The notes beneath the pieces are model-generated. The model had not been told where the DNA came from. It saw only the letters and a list, made by a program, of their open reading frames with translations, and did no database searches. A program made the position numbers and the translations under genes. This document shows, one piece after another, positions 1-61,019 of a stretch of DNA of 64,000 nucleotides (the stretch's first letter is position 1; each line of letters opens with the position of its first letter). The stretch is from an uncultured Bacilli bacterium (GTDB lineage: Bacteria > Bacillota_I > Bacilli_A > RF39 > UBA660), in contig CAKPKR010000006.1 in NCBI GenBank assembly GCA_934167465.1, positions 3,299 to 67,298 of the forward strand. The letters are read 5' to 3'.

Positions 1-266
1 TAATTCTAATCATTTTTAACTATTAAACATAAGAAAGAAAGAAATAAAAATTTCTTTATTTACAACAGCTTATGAGTAATTTTCTATAAGTCGGTATATA
101 CCAGTTTATATTAGCTTTATTTTCATTTATTTGGATTAACTCCTTTACTTATTATATTTCATATAATATCTAGATTCAGTTTCTTCTATAACATTAAATT
201 CTAATTTCTTATATAGAGATATAGCTTTTTTCATTTTCTTTAAACACCAACAAATATACTATAGCA

Positions 267-797
267 TTATTTTATTTCTAAAATCTTTCTTTTGTTTAGG
301 GATAATATTTCAAAACTTTTTTCATTATATAATTCATTCGCTAATTCTATTGATTCTTTTAACAATTCTTCTAAACTGTTTATTGGATTTTTATTATAGT
401 CTTCTTTATATAACCAATCCAGATATTTTATTTTTGTAGCTTCATTAGGTCTTCCATATATTACTTTACCAGAATGTAACCAATATCCAAATTCTACATT
501 TGTAGTAAAACCAGGCATATTCGGTAAACTCCTAGGTATCCAAAACATAATAACTGTTGCTTCTGTTAATGCCTCTCTTTCCCACATTGCTTGATCAACA
601 TAATCTGTTTTTGGTTTCCAAGTTGAATATTCAGGAACATAAACTACACCATCAAATCCTAACTCATTTAATTTTTCACAAACAATAGTTCTCCAAGATT
701 TTACATTTTCATTTCTTGGAGTTGGACCCGCTATGAATATAGATTTTTTATTTTTTATAACTTTTTGATCCGAATAATTAATTATCATTAATATCAC
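267..797 (-). CDS. nucleoside 2-deoxyribosyltransferase-like protein
   Basis: 176-aa ORF. KSIFIAGPTPR strand, then QAMWEREAL..VIMFWIP and TNVEFGYW motifs fit the deoxyribosyltransferase-like fold as I recall it. Not searched. Confidence 0.55.
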   Translation of the reverse strand: MILMIINYSDQKVIKNKKSIFIAGPTPRNENVKSWRTIVCEKLNELGFDGVVYVPEYSTWKPKTDYVDQAMWEREALTEATVIMFWIPRSLPNMPGFTTNVEFGYWLHSGKVIYGRPNEATKIKYLDWLYKEDYNKNPINSLEELLKESIELANELYNEKSFEILSLNKRKILEIK

Positions 798-1023
798 ATT
801 CCTTTCTTAATAGTATTTAATTAAATACTGTTTAATCCATTAATTTATCAAAGTCTGAAACATAGCTTTTATATTGTAAAATTTTATACTAATTAAATTC
901 GTTTTATAATGCTCACTTTTTTAATCTATTTAAGTATAACATAAAAAAGACAGATTTCAAATCTATCTAATTATTGATTAATTAAATTTACTTATTTAAT
1001 AGACTGATCAATCTACCATATAA

Positions 1024-1368
1024 TCACTTTTTAATTAATTGAATTGATCTACCATTATTATCTGAAATAAAAAAACTTTCCCTATTCAAATCACCAAAAA
1101 ATACATCAAGTTTTTCTTTACAATATCCTAAAGATTCAAGTAGCTTACAATAATCTTCTTCTGTTTCATATCTATATGCAACATGATCAAAATTTTCCTT
1201 ATTAGAAGATTCAAATAGTTCTAATGAATGATTATTTAATCTTAATGTCGCCCATTTATAGTTACCATCTTTAAATCTTTCAACTAAACTATATCCGAAA
1301 TTTGTATAGAAAAGAATTGATTCTTCTAAATCAGTAACTGTAATTGCAATATGATCTAAATCTAACAT
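1024..1368 (-). CDS. VOC/glyoxalase family protein
   Basis: LDHIAITVTDLEESILFYT..GY motif. Start moved to internal ATG at 1368, which has an AGGAGGT RBS 7 nt upstream. A hairpin terminator lies about 945-975 downstream. Confidence 0.7.
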   Translation of the reverse strand: MLDLDHIAITVTDLEESILFYTNFGYSLVERFKDGNYKWATLRLNNHSLELFESSNKENFDHVAYRYETEEDYCKLLESLGYCKEKLDVFFGDLNRESFFISDNNGRSIQLIKK

Positions 1369-1417
1369 AAAATACCTCCTACAAATATTATAATCTTTCA
1401 AGTAGGAAGTAATCTTG

Positions 1418-1990
1418 CTAGATAATTATTTTTTCTATTCTTTTTAAATTTAAATGTCTTATATCATTTAAATCTTCTGAATAACGTACTATAATCATTA
1501 CAGTATTTTCATATATATATATTTGAATTGGTAATACATCCCTAGTTTTTTTCAAACCTTTACTATTATATTCAATTGTTATTGATGCATTATTGTTAAT
1601 TGCATTTTGAATTATGCTTATTTTTCCTTTTTCTTCATTACTTATATTTTTGGTTTCATCAACTAATCTGCAATAATTACTTATTTTATATTTTATTTCT
1701 TCTAAGTCTCTTTTATCATTATCTGATAATTTATCTATTAACAAATTAACTTTATCTATATCATTCTTATTAAATAAAATTGAGGGGATTTCTACTTTTG
1801 ATTGTAGCCTATACCCTCCATTTTGTCCCATAATATTTTCTAGATATATTCCTTCTTTTTCAAGTTCTTCTTTATATTGTCTCACAGTTCTAGGCGTAAC
1901 TTCTAACATTTCAGCTAACTTTTTACAATTATAAATTTTTCCTGAAGATAAGATATCCAACATTTTAATATTTTTTGAAATCTTTGACAT
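1418..1990 (-). CDS. HTH-WYL domain transcriptional regulator
   Basis: N-terminal HTH (LAEMLEVTPRTVRQYKEELEKEGI) and C-terminal WYL-like segment (VMIIVRYSEDLNDIRHLNLKRIEKI). Clear paralogue of 31369..31965. Confidence 0.7.
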   Translation of the reverse strand: MSKISKNIKMLDILSSGKIYNCKKLAEMLEVTPRTVRQYKEELEKEGIYLENIMGQNGGYRLQSKVEIPSILFNKNDIDKVNLLIDKLSDNDKRDLEEIKYKISNYCRLVDETKNISNEEKGKISIIQNAINNNASITIEYNSKGLKKTRDVLPIQIYIYENTVMIIVRYSEDLNDIRHLNLKRIEKIII

Positions 1991-2937: not shown

Positions 2938-4362
2938 CTAATATGCTTTAGCAAAATTAACGATGTGTTTTGCTTCTTCACCACAACATATACATTTTTC
3001 ATTAATTGGTTCCTTATCACTAATACATCTACTTGTAGCTGTAGTATCTTCTTTTATCTTTAGTTCGCATTCTGTTTTACCACACCAAGGTGCTTGAATA
3101 AAGCCACCAACTGATTCTAATTTTTCTTTGAACTCATCATAAGTTGAAACTTTAGTCATATGTTCACTTAGAAAAGAACAAGCTTTTTCATACATTTCAT
3201 TATGAATTATATTTAATAAACCTATTATAGTTTCAGATAACTTAGTATCTAAATTAAGTTCAACTTTATTTCCGTCATTTCTTTTAGCAATAACACATTT
3301 ATTATTTTCAATATCCTTAGGACCTATTTCAATTCTAATTGGAATACCTCTCATTTCAGCTTCAGCAAATTTATAACCCGGAGATTTATCTGTATCATCA
3401 ATATCTACTCTTAATCCTTTTTTTGTTAATTCTTCTTTGATTTCAATTGCTTTTTCCATTACGCCATCAACATTTTGTTTGATAGGAATTATTCTTACTT
3501 GAATAGGTGCTACCTTAGGTGGTAACACTAGTCCATTGTCATCACCATGAACCATAATGACTGCTCCTATTAATCTAGTAGAAACTCCCCAACTTGTTTG
3601 ATAAACATATTGCCATTTATTGTCTTTATCCAAGAATTTCATATCAAATGCTTTAGCAAATCCTTGACCAAAATAATGAGAAGTTCCAGATTGTAAAGCT
3701 TTTCCATCATGCATCAATGCTTCAATTGTATAAGTTGCTTCAGCACCAGCAAATTTTTCTTTTTCTGTTTTTAATCCAGTTACCATTGGAATTGCTAATA
3801 AATCAGCAGAAGTTTTTTTATAAATATTTAGCATTTGTATTGTTTCTTCTATGGCTTCTTCTTTAGTTGCATGAACTGTGTGACCTTCTTGCCATAAAAA
3901 TTCAGAGCCTCTTAAGAAAGGTCTTGTAGTTTTTTCCCATCTAACTACACTACACCATTGATTATATTTTTTAGGTAAATCACGATAAGAATTTACTATT
4001 TTAGCATAATGCTCACAAAATAATGTTTCACTTGTAGGTCTTACTACACATTTTTCATCTAATTCTTCTAGTCCCCCTTGGGTTACAACTGCACATTCAG
4101 GAGCAAATCCTTCAACATGATCTTTTTCTTTTTGTAATAAATTTTCTGGTATTAACATTGGCATATAAACATTTTGATGTCCTGTTTTTTTGAATTCATT
4201 ATCCATATATTTTTGGATATTTTCCCATATTGCATATCCATATGGACGATATATTATAAATCCTTTTAAACTTGAATAGTCCATTAATTCTGCTTTTTTA
4301 CATACATCTGTATACCATTTAGCAAAGTCATCTTTCATACTAGTAATTGCTTCGTTCTTCAT
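2938..4362 (-). CDS. proS: proline--tRNA ligase (archaeal/eukaryal-like short type)
   Basis: 474 aa. FAKWYTDV..., class II motifs and a C-terminal Zn-binding-like CxxC segment. Strong family resemblance. Confidence 0.93.
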   Translation of the reverse strand: MKNEAITSMKDDFAKWYTDVCKKAELMDYSSLKGFIIYRPYGYAIWENIQKYMDNEFKKTGHQNVYMPMLIPENLLQKEKDHVEGFAPECAVVTQGGLEELDEKCVVRPTSETLFCEHYAKIVNSYRDLPKKYNQWCSVVRWEKTTRPFLRGSEFLWQEGHTVHATKEEAIEETIQMLNIYKKTSADLLAIPMVTGLKTEKEKFAGAEATYTIEALMHDGKALQSGTSHYFGQGFAKAFDMKFLDKDNKWQYVYQTSWGVSTRLIGAVIMVHGDDNGLVLPPKVAPIQVRIIPIKQNVDGVMEKAIEIKEELTKKGLRVDIDDTDKSPGYKFAEAEMRGIPIRIEIGPKDIENNKCVIAKRNDGNKVELNLDTKLSETIIGLLNIIHNEMYEKACSFLSEHMTKVSTYDEFKEKLESVGGFIQAPWCGKTECELKIKEDTTATSRCISDKEPINEKCICCGEEAKHIVNFAKAY

Positions 4363-4418
4363 TTTTTCACTCTTTTCTAAATCATTGTAATTATATCAAA
4401 AATATATAGGTCTAACAA

Positions 4419-5177
4419 TTATATTGTTTTTTCTTTTTCCATAGTTATATGGTCAATTAAAAATCCCTTAGTTGGTTTATCTGATATCATTTCATAGCAC
4501 AAATTCATACATTCATCATTATCAGTTATTCCTTTATAATCAATATATTTTTGTCTATTAAATATTAATGTCAATGTTGATTCAATTCTCTCTATTATAT
4601 CATCATAATTGATATCATTGAAAAGATATATTGTAAGTAAATTTAACATATAGCAATCAATTCCATCAAAAGTATCTTTAACATCATAATATTTTTTCAT
4701 TGTTGAACTTATTTGATCAAAATTGTAATTTTCTATTTTAACATTAACAGAATCACATAAATATGCTTTATTTCCATCGGTAATAATGTTTTTTACATTT
4801 AAATCTGCATATATACAATTTTGATTTCTTAAATTAATTATTTCTTCTTTTAAATTCAATAACAAATTATGCTTTTCTTCATCGGTCATTATATCTTTCA
4901 TTACACAAATGGGATAAAATTTTTTCATGTATTTCATTGAAAATCCTATAACATCATTATCTACTTTAACTAACTTGTCAGGTTTAATTAAAACACCTGT
5001 TTTTAGTTTATTTATCAATTTGATTTTATTTATATCAACTTGATCAGAATCATAATATTTTTTTATTAAAATTTCTCTATTGTCAGAAATATAAGTATAT
5101 ATTTCAGATTCATAACCTTCAGTTAATAAGTTTTTGTTTTTATCAAATTCACTTTTATTTAATTCTAAATATTCCAT
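4419..5177 (-). CDS. protein kinase-like fold protein (atypical catalytic motifs)
   Basis: GYESEIYTY..ILIKKYY (Gly-loop/VAIK-like) and IYADLNVKNIITDGNKAYLCDS (HRDLxxxN / DFG-like region with substitutions). Confidence 0.45.
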   Translation of the reverse strand: MEYLELNKSEFDKNKNLLTEGYESEIYTYISDNREILIKKYYDSDQVDINKIKLINKLKTGVLIKPDKLVKVDNDVIGFSMKYMKKFYPICVMKDIMTDEEKHNLLLNLKEEIINLRNQNCIYADLNVKNIITDGNKAYLCDSVNVKIENYNFDQISSTMKKYYDVKDTFDGIDCYMLNLLTIYLFNDINYDDIIERIESTLTLIFNRQKYIDYKGITDNDECMNLCYEMISDKPTKGFLIDHITMEKEKTI

Positions 5178-5250
5178 ATAACCACCTAAATAACATTATA
5201 ATATAATAAAAGAAAAAAGACAATTAATGTTTTAAAACTTTTGCCTTTAA

Positions 5251-6669
5251 TTAAACTATTTCACCATACATATTCCAAGTTTTGATATCTGTTATTTTGA
5301 CATCAACAATTTTTCCTATATTATCTTTTGAACCTTTAATATTTACTAATTTCATTGTATCAGTATATCCAAATAACATATTTTCATCTTTTTCACTTAT
5401 TCCTTCTACTAATACAGGTACTATTTTTTCTAAATATTTATCATTTGCTTCCTTAGAGTATTTATTTATTAATTCATTTAAAACTTGTAATCTTTTTTCT
5501 TTTATATCTAAAGAAACATTATCGTTCATTTTAGCTGCTGGAGTTCCTACTCTAGGCGAAAAAATGAATGTAAATGCAGAATCAAATTTACAAGTATTAA
5601 CTACTCCTAAAGTATCATTAAAATCTTCATCTGTCTCATTTGGAAATCCAACTATAATATCAGTTGTTATTGAAGAATAAGGTAAAGCCTTTTTAATTTT
5701 ATTAAATAATGTTATATATTCTTCTTTGGTATATCTTCTTCCCATTAATTTTAAAATATTGTTTGAACCTGATTGAAGTGGTAAATGAATATAAGGCATT
5801 ATATTTTTATATTTACTTATTATTTCAATCATTTTATCTGTAAAATCCCAAGGATGACTAGTAACGAATCTAATTCTTTCTATTCCTGTTTTAGCGACAT
5901 CTTCTAACAAATTTTCCATTCCATAATCAATATCTAAGTCTTTTCCATAAGCATTGACATTTTGACCTAATAAAGTTACTTCTTTATAACCATCCTTTAT
6001 TAAATCTTCTACTTCTTTTATGATATATTCTGGAAGTCTACTTCTTTGTTTTCCTCTAGTATAGGGAACTATACAATATGTACAGAATTTATCGCAACCA
6101 TACATTATATTAATCCAAGCTTTATATTTAGAATCTCTTTTAACTGGAATATTTTCAATTACATCACCTTCAATACTAAATACTTCTATTTCTTGTTCTT
6201 TTTTTATAATTGAGTCATTTAATATTTGTGGTAATTTATGAATATTATGAGTTCCAAATACAATGTCTAACCATTTATATTTAGTTTTGATTTCATTTAC
6301 AACTACTTCTTCTTGAGCCATACATCCACATATACCTGCTATTACGTGTGGTTTTTCTTCTTTTAAGTGTTTAATTCTTCCTAGATAACCAAATACTTTA
6401 TTATGGGCATTTTCTCTTATAGCGCATGTATTTAATAAAATTAAATCGGCATCTTCCATTACATCCGTTTCTATATATGACATATCTTCTAAGATAGCTT
6501 TTATATTTTCTGAGTCATGTTCATTCATTTGACATCCATATGTTCTTAAAAAATATTTTTTATTTTTACCTATTTCTTTTAAATTGTTGTTCATTATATA
6601 ATCATTGGTTTTAACTAAAACTTCCTTGCTTGTTCTTAATTTTGCCTCTTTTAAATTTGGTAAATTCAT
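5251..6669 (-). CDS. miaB: tRNA-2-methylthio-N6-dimethylallyladenosine synthase
   Basis: YFLRTYGCQMNEHDSE, radical-SAM motif CDKFCTYCIVPYTRG, C-terminal TRAM domain. Confidence 0.95.
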   Translation of the reverse strand: MNLPNLKEAKLRTSKEVLVKTNDYIMNNNLKEIGKNKKYFLRTYGCQMNEHDSENIKAILEDMSYIETDVMEDADLILLNTCAIRENAHNKVFGYLGRIKHLKEEKPHVIAGICGCMAQEEVVVNEIKTKYKWLDIVFGTHNIHKLPQILNDSIIKKEQEIEVFSIEGDVIENIPVKRDSKYKAWINIMYGCDKFCTYCIVPYTRGKQRSRLPEYIIKEVEDLIKDGYKEVTLLGQNVNAYGKDLDIDYGMENLLEDVAKTGIERIRFVTSHPWDFTDKMIEIISKYKNIMPYIHLPLQSGSNNILKLMGRRYTKEEYITLFNKIKKALPYSSITTDIIVGFPNETDEDFNDTLGVVNTCKFDSAFTFIFSPRVGTPAAKMNDNVSLDIKEKRLQVLNELINKYSKEANDKYLEKIVPVLVEGISEKDENMLFGYTDTMKLVNIKGSKDNIGKIVDVKITDIKTWNMYGEIV

Positions 6670-16274: not shown

Positions 16275-16303
16275 ATTATAACAGAAAAAAAGATATTTTG
16301 CAA
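16275..16303 (-). promoter_or_regulatory. sigmaA-type promoter TTGCAA-17-TATAAT for gene 14849..16249
   Basis: Read on the minus strand. The -35 lies in the loop of the upstream terminator hairpin. Confidence 0.55.
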
Positions 16304-16309
16304 TATCTT
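16284..16309 (-). terminator. intrinsic terminator ending the non-coding unit
   Basis: Minus strand AAGATATT-GCAA-AATATCTT followed by TTTTTCT. Confidence 0.55.
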
Positions 16310-16895
16310 AAAACAATGGCGATTAATATAGTTAACTTTATGTCTTAGGTCAAGTAGAATTTCTCTAGTTTTTACTTATCGTTACCAATAAGCGGTTCCC
16401 CTTTGAAAAAACCAATATACCGTTACCAAATATATGACTTGATTACCACTTAGTACATACTGCAATCCTATATTAGCACTCTAGGAATTTTCTTCAACAA
16501 CAATTTATTATTAATTCTTTTTTGCAAACATAGTTTCATAAAGCAATAATATTATTATATTGGCCAAAACAATAATATCTGTCATTAATCCCCTATATTC
16601 ACTCAAGACAAGCTACGCTACTCGTAAGTGATCCCCACATAGTAGGTTTAATCCTAAATCGTCACAAGTCCATCAACTTTCGTGTATAGGCTTATAACAA
16701 GTTTAGGTCTCCACGAATACTGGGTCGATTGCGTATGCCATTACGGTCGCCCAACATTCTATCTTCCAGCACTCACCCTACACTGGGCGTATAAAGCAAG
16801 CACCACAAGCTTCACAGATGTGCTCTTTAATGGATTTTTAGCCCCATCTTCATAATAAATTTAATTGACTAGAATAATGTGCCATCAATTTATAT
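16284..16895 (-). ncRNA. candidate large structured non-coding RNA (about 610 nt, class unassigned)
   Basis: The unit runs from its own promoter to its own terminator with stops in all six frames. The core 16590-16860 is markedly G+C richer than its surroundings. Several helices have G-U pairs only on the minus-strand transcript. Confidence 0.5.
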
Positions 16896-16900
16896 ACAAA

Positions 16901-16929
16901 ATAATAGCAAATATTAGAATTATTGTCAA
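16901..16929 (-). promoter_or_regulatory. sigmaA-type promoter TTGACA-17-TATTAT driving the non-coding unit
   Basis: Read on the minus strand immediately after the tkt terminator hairpin (16963-16982). Confidence 0.55.
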
Positions 16930-29149: not shown

Positions 29150-29716
29150 TTAATTAATTCCAATAATATAGTAAAAATATGGTGCATTTCCTGATGCAGA
29201 AAATGTAATACTATTACTACCTTTTGGAAGATTTAGTCGATATCCAATACCATAAGTAAATGAACCATAATCATTACCACTATTAAATATAGAATTTTTA
29301 AGTGGTACCCACGAATTTGTTTGCTTGATATATCCATTCTTATCACTAGAAAAGGCTAATGCAACTTTATATGATTTTGAAGTAGTAAAATTAAAAGTAT
29401 AATCACCAACCCAATTATTACCTGATACAATAATAGCAACCTCAGATATATTTGCACTTGCACTTACACCTATTATAAGTTATCCTTTTACTACTGCTGT
29501 TTTTCCATTCAATATATCATTTGCAGTTGCATCGCCTGAACTTTTTATTTTATAAATATCATTTAAAACTTCATTTACAGTCATACTTGTTCCATCACTT
29601 ACATTATATACAACATCACTTGCTTTATATGTGACCGCTGCATATAACGTTCCACTTATACATATAATCATTGTAATTATTACTAAAAATATTCTGCTTT
29701 TCATTATTTTTTTCAT
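29150..29716 (-). pseudogene. decayed member of the conserved-N-terminus secreted protein family (in-frame TAA at 29480-29482)
   Basis: The 78-aa ORF continues in the same frame for about 110 further codons after one TAA, down to the stop at 29150-29152. The N-terminus is paralogous to 46710..47534 and 60274..60897. Confidence 0.7.
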
Positions 29717-29739: not shown

Positions 29740-29771
29740 ATCATACCATCCCCCACAGACGATTTTATCAA
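29740..29771 (-). promoter_or_regulatory. degenerate copy of the family promoter (TTGATA-20-TATGAT) with an interrupted G tract
   Basis: Aligns with 47557-47587 and 60922-60952. The tract reads GTGGGGGATGG on the minus strand. Confidence 0.45.
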
Positions 29772-29797
29772 GCAGAAATTTTGTTCGTATTTGTTTA

Positions 29798-32153: not shown

Positions 32154-33355
32154 TATGGTAATCGCTTAAAATTATTAAACATATCTATTGACAATCATTA
32201 AGATTTGGTATTACTTCAAAAATAAGTCTTTCTATTTTTGAAAAATCTAATACATAATTAGTTAATTTCCTTTTTAAAGGTACCTTCCCAAAACTATCAT
32301 CTAAACTTGCTAAATTAAATACAATCTTTCTTAGTATTGATAGATTATTGATACTATTTCCAATTCTATTTCTTGAATGGTCTTCATCTAGAATTACATC
32401 TAATCTCCAATGTAATCCACACTCAGTATTCCAATGATCTCTTATTACTTCTTCTAATCTTTTAATATCTATTTCATAATCTATAATGTAATAATTTTCT
32501 GTTATTGTTATTTCTTCATTTATCATTGTTTGGATTTTTGTATATGCTATCGCTTTTACCATTTTCCACTTCTTCCATAATCTTTTCCTATTGTTTTATA
32601 ATATTTTATATTTTTATTACCATATAAATTATATTGTTTATTAAAATACTTTTTTATATCTTTTAATAATTGCTTTTGGTTTTCTTTTACTTTTAATGCA
32701 TAATGCCCACCTTTATCAACTATTTTATTAACTATTTTTTCTTGTACTCCTATTGAATCTATTGTTATAGTTGCTCTTGTAATATCTATTAAATCTATCA
32801 AATCTAGTATTGTGGTTATTTCATTTGATTTACTTTTATTTGACCTATTGAAATACCTATATCTCCTAAAAAGGCAGAAACTATATATGGTATATTTCCA
32901 CCTTGTATTTTATTTGTTGCGCTTTTCACTGTTTTACCGTCGATACTTATCTTTTTACCTGTTTTATTTTTTACTATCTCGCTTATCCATTCAATAAAGA
33001 TTTCCATAAACTTTTTACTATCTATTTGAACATATAAATCTGATAAACAATCATGTGATGGTGTTCCATTTTTTAATCCTAATAATTTATTGAAATATTC
33101 TTCTTTTAATTTCATAAAATATGCAATATCAACATAATCGGTTTGTCCACATAGTATTGTATAAATTGTCATTATTAAAATATCTATTAATTTATATTTT
33201 TTCCTCTTATATCTCTTGGATCTTCTAATACTTCAAATTGTTCAAATAAACTCATCTATACCATCTCCTAGTATAATTGTAGCTTATCATTCTATTATTT
33301 GGTAACTTATTTACTTTTTTTACACTTTTTTTAATAATTTTAAGCGATTACCATA
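32154..33355 (-). mobile_element. ISAs1-family insertion sequence (1202 bp) with perfect 26-bp terminal inverted repeats
   Basis: Left end TATGGTAATCGCTTAAAATTATTAAA (32154-32179). The right end (33330-33355) is its exact reverse complement. Flanked by a 9-bp duplication. Confidence 0.85.
32185..33255 (-). pseudogene. ISAs1-family (H-repeat-associated) transposase, broken by three frameshifts
   Basis: Fragments MSLFEQFEVLEDPRDIRGK / MTIYTILCG..DGKTVKSA / KSNEITTILDLIDL..TIDSIGVQ / HWNTECGLHWRLDVILDEDHSR are collinear with the family but fall in different frames. Confidence 0.8.
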
Positions 33356-34236: not shown

Positions 34237-34659
34237 TTATTCCAAATCTTTATTGTAATCACTAGTTTGATAATTTCCAGGACAACTCAAATAAGTTTTA
34301 TATTCTTTCTTTTGTCTATTATAAACAACATAACCAGTACATTCTTTATTATTTTTAGGATCAACTACTTTTTTGATATATCCATTTCTAATTAAATTAT
34401 TTAATTTTATTATAACAGTATCTTCTGTTTCACTATTATTATATAACTTTGCCTGTTCAGTTATTCTATCTTCCAATTCAATATAGTCTCCAATATCAGT
34501 TTTATCTCCAGAAATTATAGGATCAATAATTGGCTTTTTATTTTCCTTATTCATCAATTGATTGCATAAGATTATTACAATAACTAAGCAGACAAAAAAA
34601 GCTAAAAGAAATAATAAAAATTCATTTAACCCCCACCCTTTATTATCTAATCTTTTCAT
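34237..34659 (-). CDS. membrane-anchored protein, unknown function
   Basis: 140 aa. N-terminal TM helix; C-terminal part has two Cys. Confidence 0.55.
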   Translation of the reverse strand: MKRLDNKGWGLNEFLLFLLAFFVCLVIVIILCNQLMNKENKKPIIDPIISGDKTDIGDYIELEDRITEQAKLYNNSETEDTVIIKLNNLIRNGYIKKVVDPKNNKECTGYVVYNRQKKEYKTYLSCPGNYQTSDYNKDLE

Positions 34660-46529: not shown

Positions 46530-46655
46530 TTCACACCTTCTTTAAAATATATGATTTTTTTCAAAATAAAAACACCTTTTCGTGTCTAAATAAATATTAC
46601 CATATTGTATTTAAAAAGTCAATATAAGTAAATAAAAAGTTGTTTTTTTAGAATA

Positions 46656-46687
46656 ATAAAAAAACTGTGTTTTATAATTACACAGTT
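46656..46687 (-). terminator. intrinsic terminator of 46710..47534
   Basis: AACTGTGT-loop-ACACAGTT followed by a T run on the minus strand. Confidence 0.7.
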
Positions 46688-46709: not shown

Positions 46710-47534
46710 TTATGAAAGTTTTGATTTAGGAATTGTTATTACTGGACGGATGCCTAATGTATTATATTTAACTTCAGAATCAGATAAAGTACCATGGTAA
46801 TCAATTCTCATAACAGTATTATTAGATCTAACAAATGGCGTTGAAGTCCAATAACCATATGTTGCTATTGATTCAGAAACATTACATCCATAAGAAGTGC
46901 AACTATTTGTATAATCAAACAACCAAGCATATCTACTTGTTCCTTTTCCACTAGCAGTTTGTGTTTCACTATTACTATCCAAATAAAAACCAGAAACTTG
47001 ATGAATATATTTTTCGTTTTCGGTTATGATTGCAATTTCTTTATCTGTTATTAATCTTGGTATATTTTTCCAGTTTGAAACACTAACAAGTTTATCTACT
47101 TCCACCTTTAAATTACTTTCTTCATACGATACATTTTTATTATCATTATTCCAAGCAATCATAGCAGTTGTGTTATGATCTAATATCATATTCACCGTTG
47201 AGGAATCCGAAGAATCATTAAATATATACCATTTCATACATCCAACTTTATTTTCATTTTTACTATTATCTTCAACGTAATCTTCACATATTTCTCCACT
47301 TACTGGATTATAATATATTACTGTTCCATTTTTATAAAAATAATTATAACCTTTTTTATTAATTTTATTATATAATTCATTTAAAGCATCATTTACATTC
47401 ATACTACTTCCATCACTTGCATTATATACTACATCTGTTGCTTTATATGTTGTTGCAGCATATACACTTATACTAGTAACTATAATAGTTGTAATTATTA
47501 TTAAAAATATTCTACTTTTTATTATTTTTTTCAT
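46710..47534 (-). CDS. secreted protein, conserved-N-terminus family, C-terminal YW(T/L)S...G(I/V)RPVI-type domain
   Basis: Signal peptide MKKIIKSRIFLIIITTIIVTSISVYA, then the shared module TYKATDVVYNASDGSSMNVNDALNELY, then a unique 215-aa C-terminus. Confidence 0.8.
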   Translation of the reverse strand: MKKIIKSRIFLIIITTIIVTSISVYAATTYKATDVVYNASDGSSMNVNDALNELYNKINKKGYNYFYKNGTVIYYNPVSGEICEDYVEDNSKNENKVGCMKWYIFNDSSDSSTVNMILDHNTTAMIAWNNDNKNVSYEESNLKVEVDKLVSVSNWKNIPRLITDKEIAIITENEKYIHQVSGFYLDSNSETQTASGKGTSRYAWLFDYTNSCTSYGCNVSESIATYGYWTSTPFVRSNNTVMRIDYHGTLSDSEVKYNTLGIRPVITIPKSKLS

Positions 47535-47556: not shown

Positions 47557-47587
47557 ATTATACCCCCCCCCCAGACGTAAAAGTCAA
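47557..47587 (-). promoter_or_regulatory. family promoter TTGACT-19-TATAAT with G10 tract in the spacer
   Basis: Minus strand TTGACTtttacgtctGGGGGGGGGGTATAAT, read directly. Confidence 0.6.
47563..47572. repeat. homopolymeric C10 (G10 on coding strand)
   Basis: Counted in the sequence. Confidence 0.95.
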
Positions 47588-47798
47588 GAAAAATGTTACA
47601 ATTTTTTTATAAATTTTGTAGAACTTATTATATTTTTTAAACATTATTATAGTTCAAAATTAAAAAGAACCAAAGTAGCACTACCTTGGTTCAAATGTAT
47701 TAAATTAATAATACAGTATATTATATGTAAACAAAAAATATAATTATTATATAATTGATTATTTTGTCAATAAATGTTACAATTTAGTAGGTGATAGT

Positions 47799-60273: not shown

Positions 60274-60897
60274 CTATTTTTTCATATATACTTCATATAT
60301 ATTAACAGTTTTAGAATAAGCTTCTAATACTACATAAAATTCACCTGATAAATATGGAACTGATAATTCAATTAAATAATGACCATTATCTAATTTTTTT
60401 GATTGACTACTTCCTATGCATAACGACGTTGTATAACCATAATCAGTTCTTTGTAATGACATTGAATCTGGAGTTGTCATTGTACCTATACTTATATTTT
60501 GATTATCGACTTCAAAATATATTTTACTATAATCAGTTAAATTAACCTTTTTTGATGTTGTTAAATTAGAACTATAGCTTCCACCGGGAGCTACAAATGT
60601 TAAATGATCAGAATTAAGTGTTAATGTTGAGTATTGTGATTGAAATCCTTTTCTCCAACCACCTGTAATATCAGAATATACATTACCTGCTTTATATAAA
60701 TAATACTTAGTTTCATCTTCTATCTTTTTATTATATAACTCATTTAAAGCATCATTTACATTCATACTCGTTCCATCACTGGCATTATATATTACATCAC
60801 TTGCTTTATATGTTGTTATGGCATACACTCCTATACTTGTAAACATTATAGCTGTTAATATAAAAATAAATATTCTACTTTTCATTATTTTTTTCAT
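60274..60897 (-). CDS. secreted protein, conserved-N-terminus family, beta-sandwich-like unique C-terminus
   Basis: MKKIMKSRIFIFILTAIMFTSIGVYA + TYKASDVIYNASDGTSMNVNDALNELY, then a unique 150-aa domain. Confidence 0.8.
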   Translation of the reverse strand: MKKIMKSRIFIFILTAIMFTSIGVYAITTYKASDVIYNASDGTSMNVNDALNELYNKKIEDETKYYLYKAGNVYSDITGGWRKGFQSQYSTLTLNSDHLTFVAPGGSYSSNLTTSKKVNLTDYSKIYFEVDNQNISIGTMTTPDSMSLQRTDYGYTTSLCIGSSQSKKLDNGHYLIELSVPYLSGEFYVVLEAYSKTVNIYEVYMKK

Positions 60898-60921: not shown

Positions 60922-60952
60922 ATCATACCCCCCCCCCAGACGTAAAAGTCAA
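60922..60952 (-). promoter_or_regulatory. family promoter TTGACT-19-TATGAT with G10 tract in the spacer
   Basis: Minus strand TTGACTtttacgtctGGGGGGGGGGTATGAT, read directly. Confidence 0.6.
60928..60937. repeat. homopolymeric C10 (G10 on coding strand)
   Basis: Counted in the sequence. Confidence 0.95.
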
Positions 60953-61019
60953 GCAGAAATTTTGTTCGTTTTTTATTTTCGCAAATTAATATAGAAAAAA
61001 ATTAGTATTTCTACTAATT

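Follow-up and report, generated by a model that had tools for sequence, protein, structure and literature searches.

Three genes in a 64,000-nucleotide (nt) stretch of DNA from an uncultured Bacilli bacterium (contig CAKPKR010000006.1; hereafter the window, with 25.7% guanine plus cytosine, GC) have a promoter, a ribosome-binding site, a 26-amino-acid (aa) signal peptide and a 30-aa mature N-terminal module in common and diverge completely afterwards. These genes, copies A, B and C, are probably members of a large, unnamed and phase-variable family of Sec-exported, lectin-like binding proteins that swap their C-terminal domains, here called heads, behind a constant front end. Hundreds of protein clusters carry this front end, nearly identical front ends are found on unrelated heads, and the promoters contain a G tract whose length differs at identical loci between metagenomes.

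Results

Copies A (29150..29716), B (46710..47534) and C (60274..60897) all lie on the minus strand, and both their coordinates and the common 5' cassette agree with the initial annotation of the window. Over residues 1–58, the protein encoded by C is 78% identical to that of B and 64% identical to that of A, with 33 invariant columns, and the sequences are alignable until approximately residue 57. At the DNA level, the 5' coding parts are 85% identical between B and C (178 bp), 82% between A and B (177 bp) and 77% between A and C (193 bp), and comparison of the three genes as DNA gave no similarity 3' of this part of approximately 180 bp. A 26-nt motif probe matched only the three sites of A, B and C in the window, where none was expected from 100 shuffles. 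The mature module is conserved in all three copies with the consensus TYKA(S/T)DV(V/I)YN(A/V)SDG(S/T)SM(N/T)VN(D/E)(A/V)LN(E/D)(L/I)Y, so that the similarity is not merely that of a generic signal peptide. The features of the three loci are listed below, with the basis of the assignment in brackets.

46710..47534, minus strand: copy B, intact gene, 274 aa (open reading frame, ORF)
47457..47534, minus strand: signal peptide of B, aa 1–26, MKKIIKSR followed by IFLIIITTIIVTSISVYA (sequence)
47364..47456, minus strand: N-module of B, aa 27–57, mature module ATTYKATDVVYNASDGSSMNVNDALNELYNK (sequence)
46713..47351, minus strand: predicted head of B, DUF6273/C-type-lectin-like, aa ~62–274 (homologues with PF19789, AlphaFold2 (AF2) model, Foldseek)
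47557..47587, minus strand: promoter of B, −35 TTGACT (47582..47587), 19-nt spacer ending in G10 (47563..47572), −10 TATAAT (47557..47562) (sequence)
47667..47692, minus strand: terminator-like hairpin upstream of the B cassette (11-bp stem, then a T run)
46655..46687, minus strand: hairpin (aactgtgt/acacagtt) and T run directly after the B stop codon (spotted by eye; not called by the scan because of its 9-nt loop)
60274..60897, minus strand: copy C, intact gene, 207 aa (ORF)
60820..60897, minus strand: signal peptide of C (sequence)
60727..60819, minus strand: N-module of C (sequence)
within 60274..60897, minus strand: predicted head of C, jelly roll resembling carbohydrate-binding modules (CBM) or the Eph ligand-binding domain (LBD), aa ~64–207 (AF2 model, Foldseek)
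60922..60952, minus strand: promoter of C, −35 TTGACT (60947..60952), 19-nt spacer with G10 (60928..60937), −10 TATGAT (60922..60927) (sequence)
29150..29716, minus strand: copy A, pseudogene with intact signal peptide and N-module, followed by the linker 'GDATANDILNGKTAVVKG' (sequence)
29740..29771, minus strand: decayed promoter of A, TTGATA, 20-nt spacer with interrupted tract (GTGGGGGATGG), TATGAT (sequence and alignment)

Family size and reassortment of heads

A profile built from the three 58-aa front ends was scored against 1.84 billion representative proteins. At E≤1e-3 it retrieved 748 protein clusters (50% identity), of which 83 also passed E≤1e-10, so that the front end is far from confined to the three genes. 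In all of the 150 best hits listed, the start of the match falls within the first 13 residues, and these proteins are 56–368 aa long; the median length in the family is 188 aa. When the C-terminal parts of 277 proteins with the module were compared all against all by BLASTP, they sorted into 85 groups, between which no similarity was detectable. Where two front ends were at least 93% identical, the heads nevertheless fell into different groups in 107 of 191 pairs (56%), a single exact 26-aa signal peptide was shared by 7 head groups, and 35 signal-peptide variants preceded the B-type head. Near-identical front ends on unrelated heads indicate that the heads were reassorted many times relative to the front ends. 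The earlier proposal, derived from the three copies in the window, of a constant 5' cassette joined to unrelated C-terminal domains is thus borne out in the family.

Whole units are also replaced at the same chromosomal site between strains. The public contig L034 encodes an AspS protein 100% identical to that of the window, which adjoins copy C, and also the first 35 nt after the stop codon are common to both sequences, after which a different family member follows. The sequence of L034 continues in L007 from the same sample, with a tandem array of three family genes that each have their own G tract.

The family is restricted to uncultured, very low-GC, spore-forming gut Bacillota from human (including Hadza) and ruminant samples, where related metagenome-assembled genomes (MAGs) are labelled 'uncultured Bacilli bacterium', and a relative is also present in a roe-deer rumen MAG. 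The sporulation genes yabP/yqfD adjoin one family copy and polysaccharide deacetylase genes were also seen, indicating that the organism is presumably walled. A scan of genome contigs with two narrow peptide patterns found 6 loci, none of them from the species of the window. Three short contigs with family members (L010, L012 and L013) have a GC content of 22–27% and were binned as 'uncultured Muribaculaceae'; as the GC content of Muribaculaceae is much higher, they are probably mis-binned.

A length-polymorphic G tract in the promoters

The promoters of B and C follow the layout TTGACT-N9-G10-TATAAT/TATGAT and have a 29-nt core promoter, CTTGACTTTTACGTCTG(10)TAT, in common, of which the A version is degenerate. 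The B promoter was not called by a promoter scan that assumed spacers of 16–18 nt. Runs of at least 7 G are confined to the B and C promoters in the window (8 overlapping matches versus 0.35 expected), and the A promoter contains no such run. Directly upstream of the −35 hexamer, C (60953..60967, minus strand) and A (29772..29786, minus strand) carry the 15-nt element CGAACAAAATTTCTG, which B lacks. The same element was found in the distant family members L005, L010, L011 and L013, and it could be an UP element or the site of a family-wide regulator.

Among 29 cassette promoters of the fetched loci, the tract was G10 in 19, G9 in 6 and G11 in 4. Contigs that encode the identical B protein had either G10, as in the window (five contigs), or G9 (three contigs), and at the C locus G10, again as in the window, was present in L025, L026, L027, L030 and L032 and G11 in L031, L033, L035 and L036. 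In contigs at least 99.5% identical to the window, the tract was the sole indel of the alignment, save one 4-bp deletion in an untranslated region, and T8 tracts in the aligned regions showed no variation in length. At the B locus, where the alignments were at least 99.6% identical, no indel other than the tract was present. The variable promoters that the initial annotation had reported for these genes were hereby traced to a G tract with 9, 10 or 11 G at identical loci in different metagenomes.

Tract-free members have exactly 17 nt between the hexamers (TTGAAA-17-TATACT in L011, TTGACT-17-TAAAAT in L015), which fixes the assignment of the hexamers in the other promoters. Based on this spacing, G8–G9 would be expected to be active and G10–G11 to be weak or off, for which the spacer variation of the porA type provides a precedent (PMC3899988). 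The contig L011, which belongs to a Hadza 'Bacilli' MAG (genes at 34..1746 and 4001..5359), encodes a 452-aa member with a head that ends in ...GFRLVLKG and has no Pfam match at E≤0.01. The promoter of this gene is locked, with an interrupted tract and a 17-nt spacer, and its 570-aa neighbour contains two YWW...GVRPS/IYPSV-type repeats reminiscent of DUF6273.

In L037 (3940..3966), a G9 tract abuts the −10 hexamer (TATAAA) of a gene that belongs to a second N-module variant family (MKKIIVGIIIG...NVTYQNKTVKESLDELY) and has a B-type head, demonstrating that the G-tract device is not confined to one cassette lineage. Several public contigs end at the G tract of a cassette (L004, L024, L028, L029, L035 and L036), L004 starts with an artefactual C25 run, and L005 has an N gap at ~9570. 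As contigs break at the G tract, the family is probably under-assembled and under-counted.

Signal peptide and N-terminal module

The signal peptide is composed of a basic n-region of 8 aa and 18 further residues ending in V/L-Y-A. The pattern [VLIAT][YFH]A is present in 243 of 274 members (89%), and in 221 of these 243 the Ala follows the last K/R of the n-region at a distance of exactly 18 residues. A fixed spacing of 18 residues combined with V-x-A at positions −3/−1 represents the geometry of a cleaved Sec signal, and we infer that the signal peptide is cut after V-Y-A. In the mature module, A9, Y14, V24, A27, L28, L31 and Y32 are at least 90% conserved across sequences that are only ~30–60% identical, indicating a constraint on the protein and not only on the DNA. 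AF2 predicted with low confidence that the module folds into a beta-hairpin and a 13-residue helix.

Searches with the module against Pfam and NCBIfam gave no match; the C module had a weak hit to the NCBIfam 'MAG1140 family', which a scan of 44 diverse members did not repeat and which was dismissed as a chance hit. A profile of 56 module sequences had no sequence match in the PDB, matches in PHROG were scattered, weak and not consistent, tblastn with the module of one divergent member (P0344, 38 aa) found nothing in 50,697 phage records, and IMG/VR contained no relatives. The resemblance to the N-termini of phage tail fibres ('NVQDALDEL') that had been proposed for the module was not reproduced, and this homology was rejected. 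Only the linker of the A type, 'GDAT..IL.GK.A..G..ITG', and not the module is shared with gut phage proteins.

Three known classes of surface proteins were considered and rejected. The prepilin motif G|F-T-L-x-E was present in 0 of 274 members and A, B and C had no N_methyl match; a loose LPXTG-like pattern as in sortase substrates occurred in 4 of 274 members and a C-terminal hydrophobic tail in none of the 274; a lipobox-like pattern was found in 52 of 274 members (19%), and the signal peptides of B and C are devoid of Cys. These counts, together with the results of the Pfam and NCBIfam searches, are in line with the initial statement that the genes could not be matched to a described family, and the family likewise matches no lipoprotein or pilin class.

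Folds of the heads

PF19789 (DUF6273) is listed for several homologues of B, and a 'weak' precomputed PF19789 match exists for the exact B protein, while our Pfam scan of B resulted only in a sub-threshold match to Lcl_C (PF07603, E=0.13). The AF2 model of B had a mean predicted local distance difference test score (pLDDT) of 82.9, with values mostly above 90 in the head. Foldseek searches with this model against the PDB identified the T. ramosa IgA peptidase (9qa6, E=2.4e-3), the C-terminal domain of Legionella Lcl (8q4e) and animal C-type lectin domains, and among viral models DUF6273 proteins of gut phages (E=1.8e-5, probability 1.0). By its model, the head of B is a C-type-lectin-like fold of the DUF6273/Lcl_C kind, consistent with its earlier description as lectin-like. 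In receptor-binding proteins of phages, DUF6273 was described as a C-type-lectin fold (PMC10743442), and the IgA protease of T. ramosa has DUF6273 as its N-terminal domain (PMC12402451). Four Cys residues (C83, C99, C212 and C217) are invariant in 49 B homologues, which fits an extracytoplasmic protein. The B-type head, with the same start boundary (Y-x-N-G-T-x-I-Y-Y-N-P) and 50–60% identity, is also found on type IV pilins of other bacteria (PF07963: P0045, P0063 and P0106), showing that this head is meant for display outside the cell, and it is additionally fused to a second signal-plus-module variant, ...STIISSTNVTYQNKTVKESLDELY, the variant family in which a G9 tract likewise abuts the −10 hexamer.

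For C, the AF2 model was of moderate quality (mean pLDDT 64.6, head mostly 70–88). With Foldseek, 64 PDB matches reached E≤1e-3, among them Eph ligand-binding domains, CBM6, CBM29 and CBM86, and Pfam matches to Laminin_G_2 and CBM_15 were sub-threshold. The model identifies the head of C as a beta-jelly roll similar to CBM6/29/86 or the Eph-LBD, in agreement with the beta-sandwich-like domain that had been suspected. Other heads of the family contain the ALK/LTK-type glycine-rich domain PF12810 (P0134, E=1e-36) or, in precomputed annotation, BclA_C (PF18573, P0178).

Copy A is a single ORF interrupted by one in-frame TAA codon (29480..29482), beyond which the frame stays open across a small beta-rich head up to position 29150. 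Intact relatives of A are P0147, P0256 and P0262, of which P0147 has Lys at the position of the nonsense codon, and a truncated 78-aa product of A (P0125) is also on record from other samples. The A-type linker, which follows the module, matches phrog_13589 and unannotated gut phage contigs.

Genomic setting

All three copies are monocistronic and located between housekeeping genes, as had been noted before. Copy B is flanked by genes for a CDP-alcohol phosphatidyltransferase and SecE/NusG, copy C by aspS and genes for tRNA-Asn/Glu, and copy A by genes for a hexapeptide acyltransferase and a Ham1-family protein; the former was initially named cysE, but the protein is CysE-like and the assignment is not proven. 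No phage genes adjoin A, B or C, and neither silent, promoterless head cassettes of the pilS type nor a template repeat of a diversity-generating retroelement (DGR) were found in the window. The hairpin at 46655..46687 is probably a terminator that makes B monocistronic, and the hairpin at 47667..47692 would insulate the B cassette against read-through. Contig L019 (1380..1560, compared with the window from 46657) carries an identical B gene, but its match to the window breaks off precisely at the hairpin that follows the stop codon, and a sigma-70 gene takes the place of secE. Either a real rearrangement occurred at the unit boundary or the contig is a low-coverage (2.8x) chimera, and L019 was excluded from the evidence.

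Elsewhere in the window, which stems from a human-gut organism, a full-length OLE (ornate large extremophilic) RNA is present at 16300..16901 (minus strand; 397.8 bits, model positions 1–616 of 616). Three adjoining short ORFs at 32185..33172 (minus strand) are apparent fragments of a decayed transposase of the ISAs1/H-repeat type, with a match of one of them to DDE_Tnp_1_assoc (E=1e-12). At 34237..34659 (minus strand), a 140-aa ORF starts with MKRLDNKGWGLNEFLLFLLAFF; its G-W-G-L-N-E sequence and hydrophobic helix resemble a type IV prepilin leader, and it has no Pfam match.

Discussion

Each gene of the family is a self-contained unit with a sigma-70-type promoter that harbours 9–11 G in its spacer, a ribosome-binding site, a signal peptide, a module of ~30 aa and one of many unrelated globular heads of the ligand-binding type. 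Slipped-strand mispairing may alter the length of the spacer, so that G8–G9 would give 17–18 nt and a promoter predicted to be active, while G10–G11, the commonest assembled state, would give 19–20 nt and a promoter predicted to be weak or off. If each member switches independently, a population would display a changing combination of binding proteins, and the heads could bind glycans or other ligands related to the host, its diet or phages. The module might serve as a common handle by which every head is docked or assembled on one shared partner at the cell surface.

Several observations weigh against this interpretation. G8, the predicted optimum, was observed in 0 of 29 promoters and the modal state was a 19-nt spacer, which makes the ON length a guess, and some tract lengths were derived from contigs with 2–5x coverage, where homopolymer errors are possible. 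Cleavage of the signal peptide is deduced solely from the −3/−1 pattern, and the pLDDT of the module was 56–73 in B and below 50 in parts of C. By motif counts, the proteins contain no LPXTG, lipobox, surface-layer homology (SLH) or other known anchor, and in a Pfam scan of the heads the majority had no match.

The most far-reaching version of the proposal, that the 30-aa module is a universal docking peptide by which ~100 or more lectin-like heads are placed on one conserved surface scaffold and that, together with poly-G switches and cassette exchange, it constitutes a previously unrecognised plug-and-play display system, is a tentative suggestion that we favour less than the general picture of a switching, head-swapping family. 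Somewhat less probable still is the alternative that the products are released in soluble form, as scavenging lectins, decoys for phages or IgA, or lectin-like bacteriocins, and that the module acts in export, folding or processing, e.g. as a propeptide. The signal peptide looks cleavable and is not accompanied by a known anchor motif, the proteins are small (see the median length above), and the monocistronic genes have no partner gene in their vicinity, all of which would suit soluble products. However, a specific interaction common to the family is the more likely reason why a 30-aa segment is retained across 748 clusters down to ~30–40% identity and why its A/Y/V/AL/LY positions are near-invariant, the occurrence of the B-type head on type IV pilin scaffolds in relatives represents surface display, and no immunity-like genes were seen in the neighbourhood.

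It is also conceivable, yet unlikely, that the N-terminus remains uncleaved and that the proteins are type II membrane-anchored, with the module as juxtamembrane stalk. In the AF2 model of B, a continuous helix extends over residues 8–29 and spans V-Y-A, and signal-anchor proteins are common in Firmicutes. On the other hand, the hydrophobic stretch is fixed at 18 residues and V-x-A is conserved at −3/−1, both typical of cleaved signals, and a membrane-tethered head of 150–200 aa would presumably not reach the surface of a walled cell.

An origin as domesticated receptor-binding proteins of phages, with a module that attaches to a phage-tail-like particle or a prophage baseplate, might be suggested by the presence of DUF6273, the glycine-rich domain and the 'GDAT..ITG' linker in gut phage proteins (PMC10743442), but is highly improbable given that the phage records searched with the P0344 module and IMG/VR lack the module, PHROG matches were inconsistent, Sec signals are present and phage genes are absent next to all three copies. 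Equally little credence can be given to non-canonical pilin-like subunits that polymerise via their N-terminal helix: the fusion of the same head to PF07963 pilins in relatives and the pilin-resembling ORF at 34237..34659 are compatible with it, but the prepilin motif and N_methyl matches are missing and the module is polar directly after V-Y-A.

The phase-variable, head-swapping family that we propose has counterparts in other bacteria. In the Vlp system, as reportedly described by Yogev et al. in 1991 and by Citti and Wise in 1995, each gene has its own promoter with a homopolymer or repeat for ON/OFF switching, the 5' region is highly conserved, signal peptide included, the mature region is divergent and expression is combinatorial. 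As with Vlp and the related Vsa and Vsp proteins, many genes of one family combine a conserved promoter and signal cassette with divergent mature parts, and a promoter homopolymer varies in length, here between samples and in Vlp between clones. Unlike Vlp, the family has no conserved lipobox Cys (none in B and C, and a lipobox-like pattern in the 19% of members mentioned above), the tract is poly-G instead of poly-A, and the variable part consists of unrelated globular domains instead of tandem repeats; coding tandem repeats were looked for and none were found. Furthermore, the host is a walled, spore-forming member of the gut Bacillota, and the proteins match no NCBIfam or Pfam family. The vlp genes of M. 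hyorhinis are among the promoter-repeat-controlled cases, hif is likewise controlled by repeats, and in porA the spacer between −35 and −10 contains a run of G, so that gain or loss of one G shifts the spacing (PMC3899988). As in N. meningitidis porA, the G tract described here is located between recognisable −35 and −10 hexamers, with G9, G10 and G11 alleles at identical loci. In contrast to porA, which encodes a single porin, the device is found in a Gram-positive phylum and is replicated across dozens of dispersed genes of one family, and the relation between tract length and expression is a predicted one.

The fold of the B head is shared with the 'tentaclins', receptor-binding proteins that are targets of phage DGRs, with the IgA protease of T. 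ramosa (N-terminal domain) and with Legionella Lcl (C-terminal domain) (PMC10743442, PMC12402451). Unlike in those DUF6273/Lcl_C proteins, a 57-aa secretion and handle cassette here carries the domain as a stand-alone head, and the window contains no DGR template repeat or second copy. The pilins P0045, P0063 and P0106 have the same B-type head with the same boundary, but a prepilin leader and pilin domain in the place of the Sec signal and TYKASDV module. By analogy, the family in its best-supported reading works like Vlp and porA. It is a member of neither and has no sequence relationship to them, and the protein module on which it is based is undescribed.

Surface repertoires with phase variation are well known from the pathogens Mycoplasma, Neisseria and Haemophilus and, by means of invertible promoters, in gut Bacteroidales. 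To our knowledge, repeat-driven repertoires are essentially undescribed in gut Firmicutes, and a literature search for a described equivalent in this group found nothing relevant. The combination of promoter, signal peptide and module provides a compact marker for finding such genes in metagenomes, and the family offers a catalogue of approximately 85 or more mostly unclassified small domains of the binding type, several of which are common to receptor-binding proteins of gut phages. The length of the G tract in sequencing reads may be used as a natural, cultivation-free read-out of bet-hedging in situ. If the module is a docking handle, it might find use as a display tag, and if the heads are indeed displayed in a plug-and-play manner, an abundant uncultured lineage of gut Bacillota could vary its binding to mucus or dietary glycans, IgA and phages.

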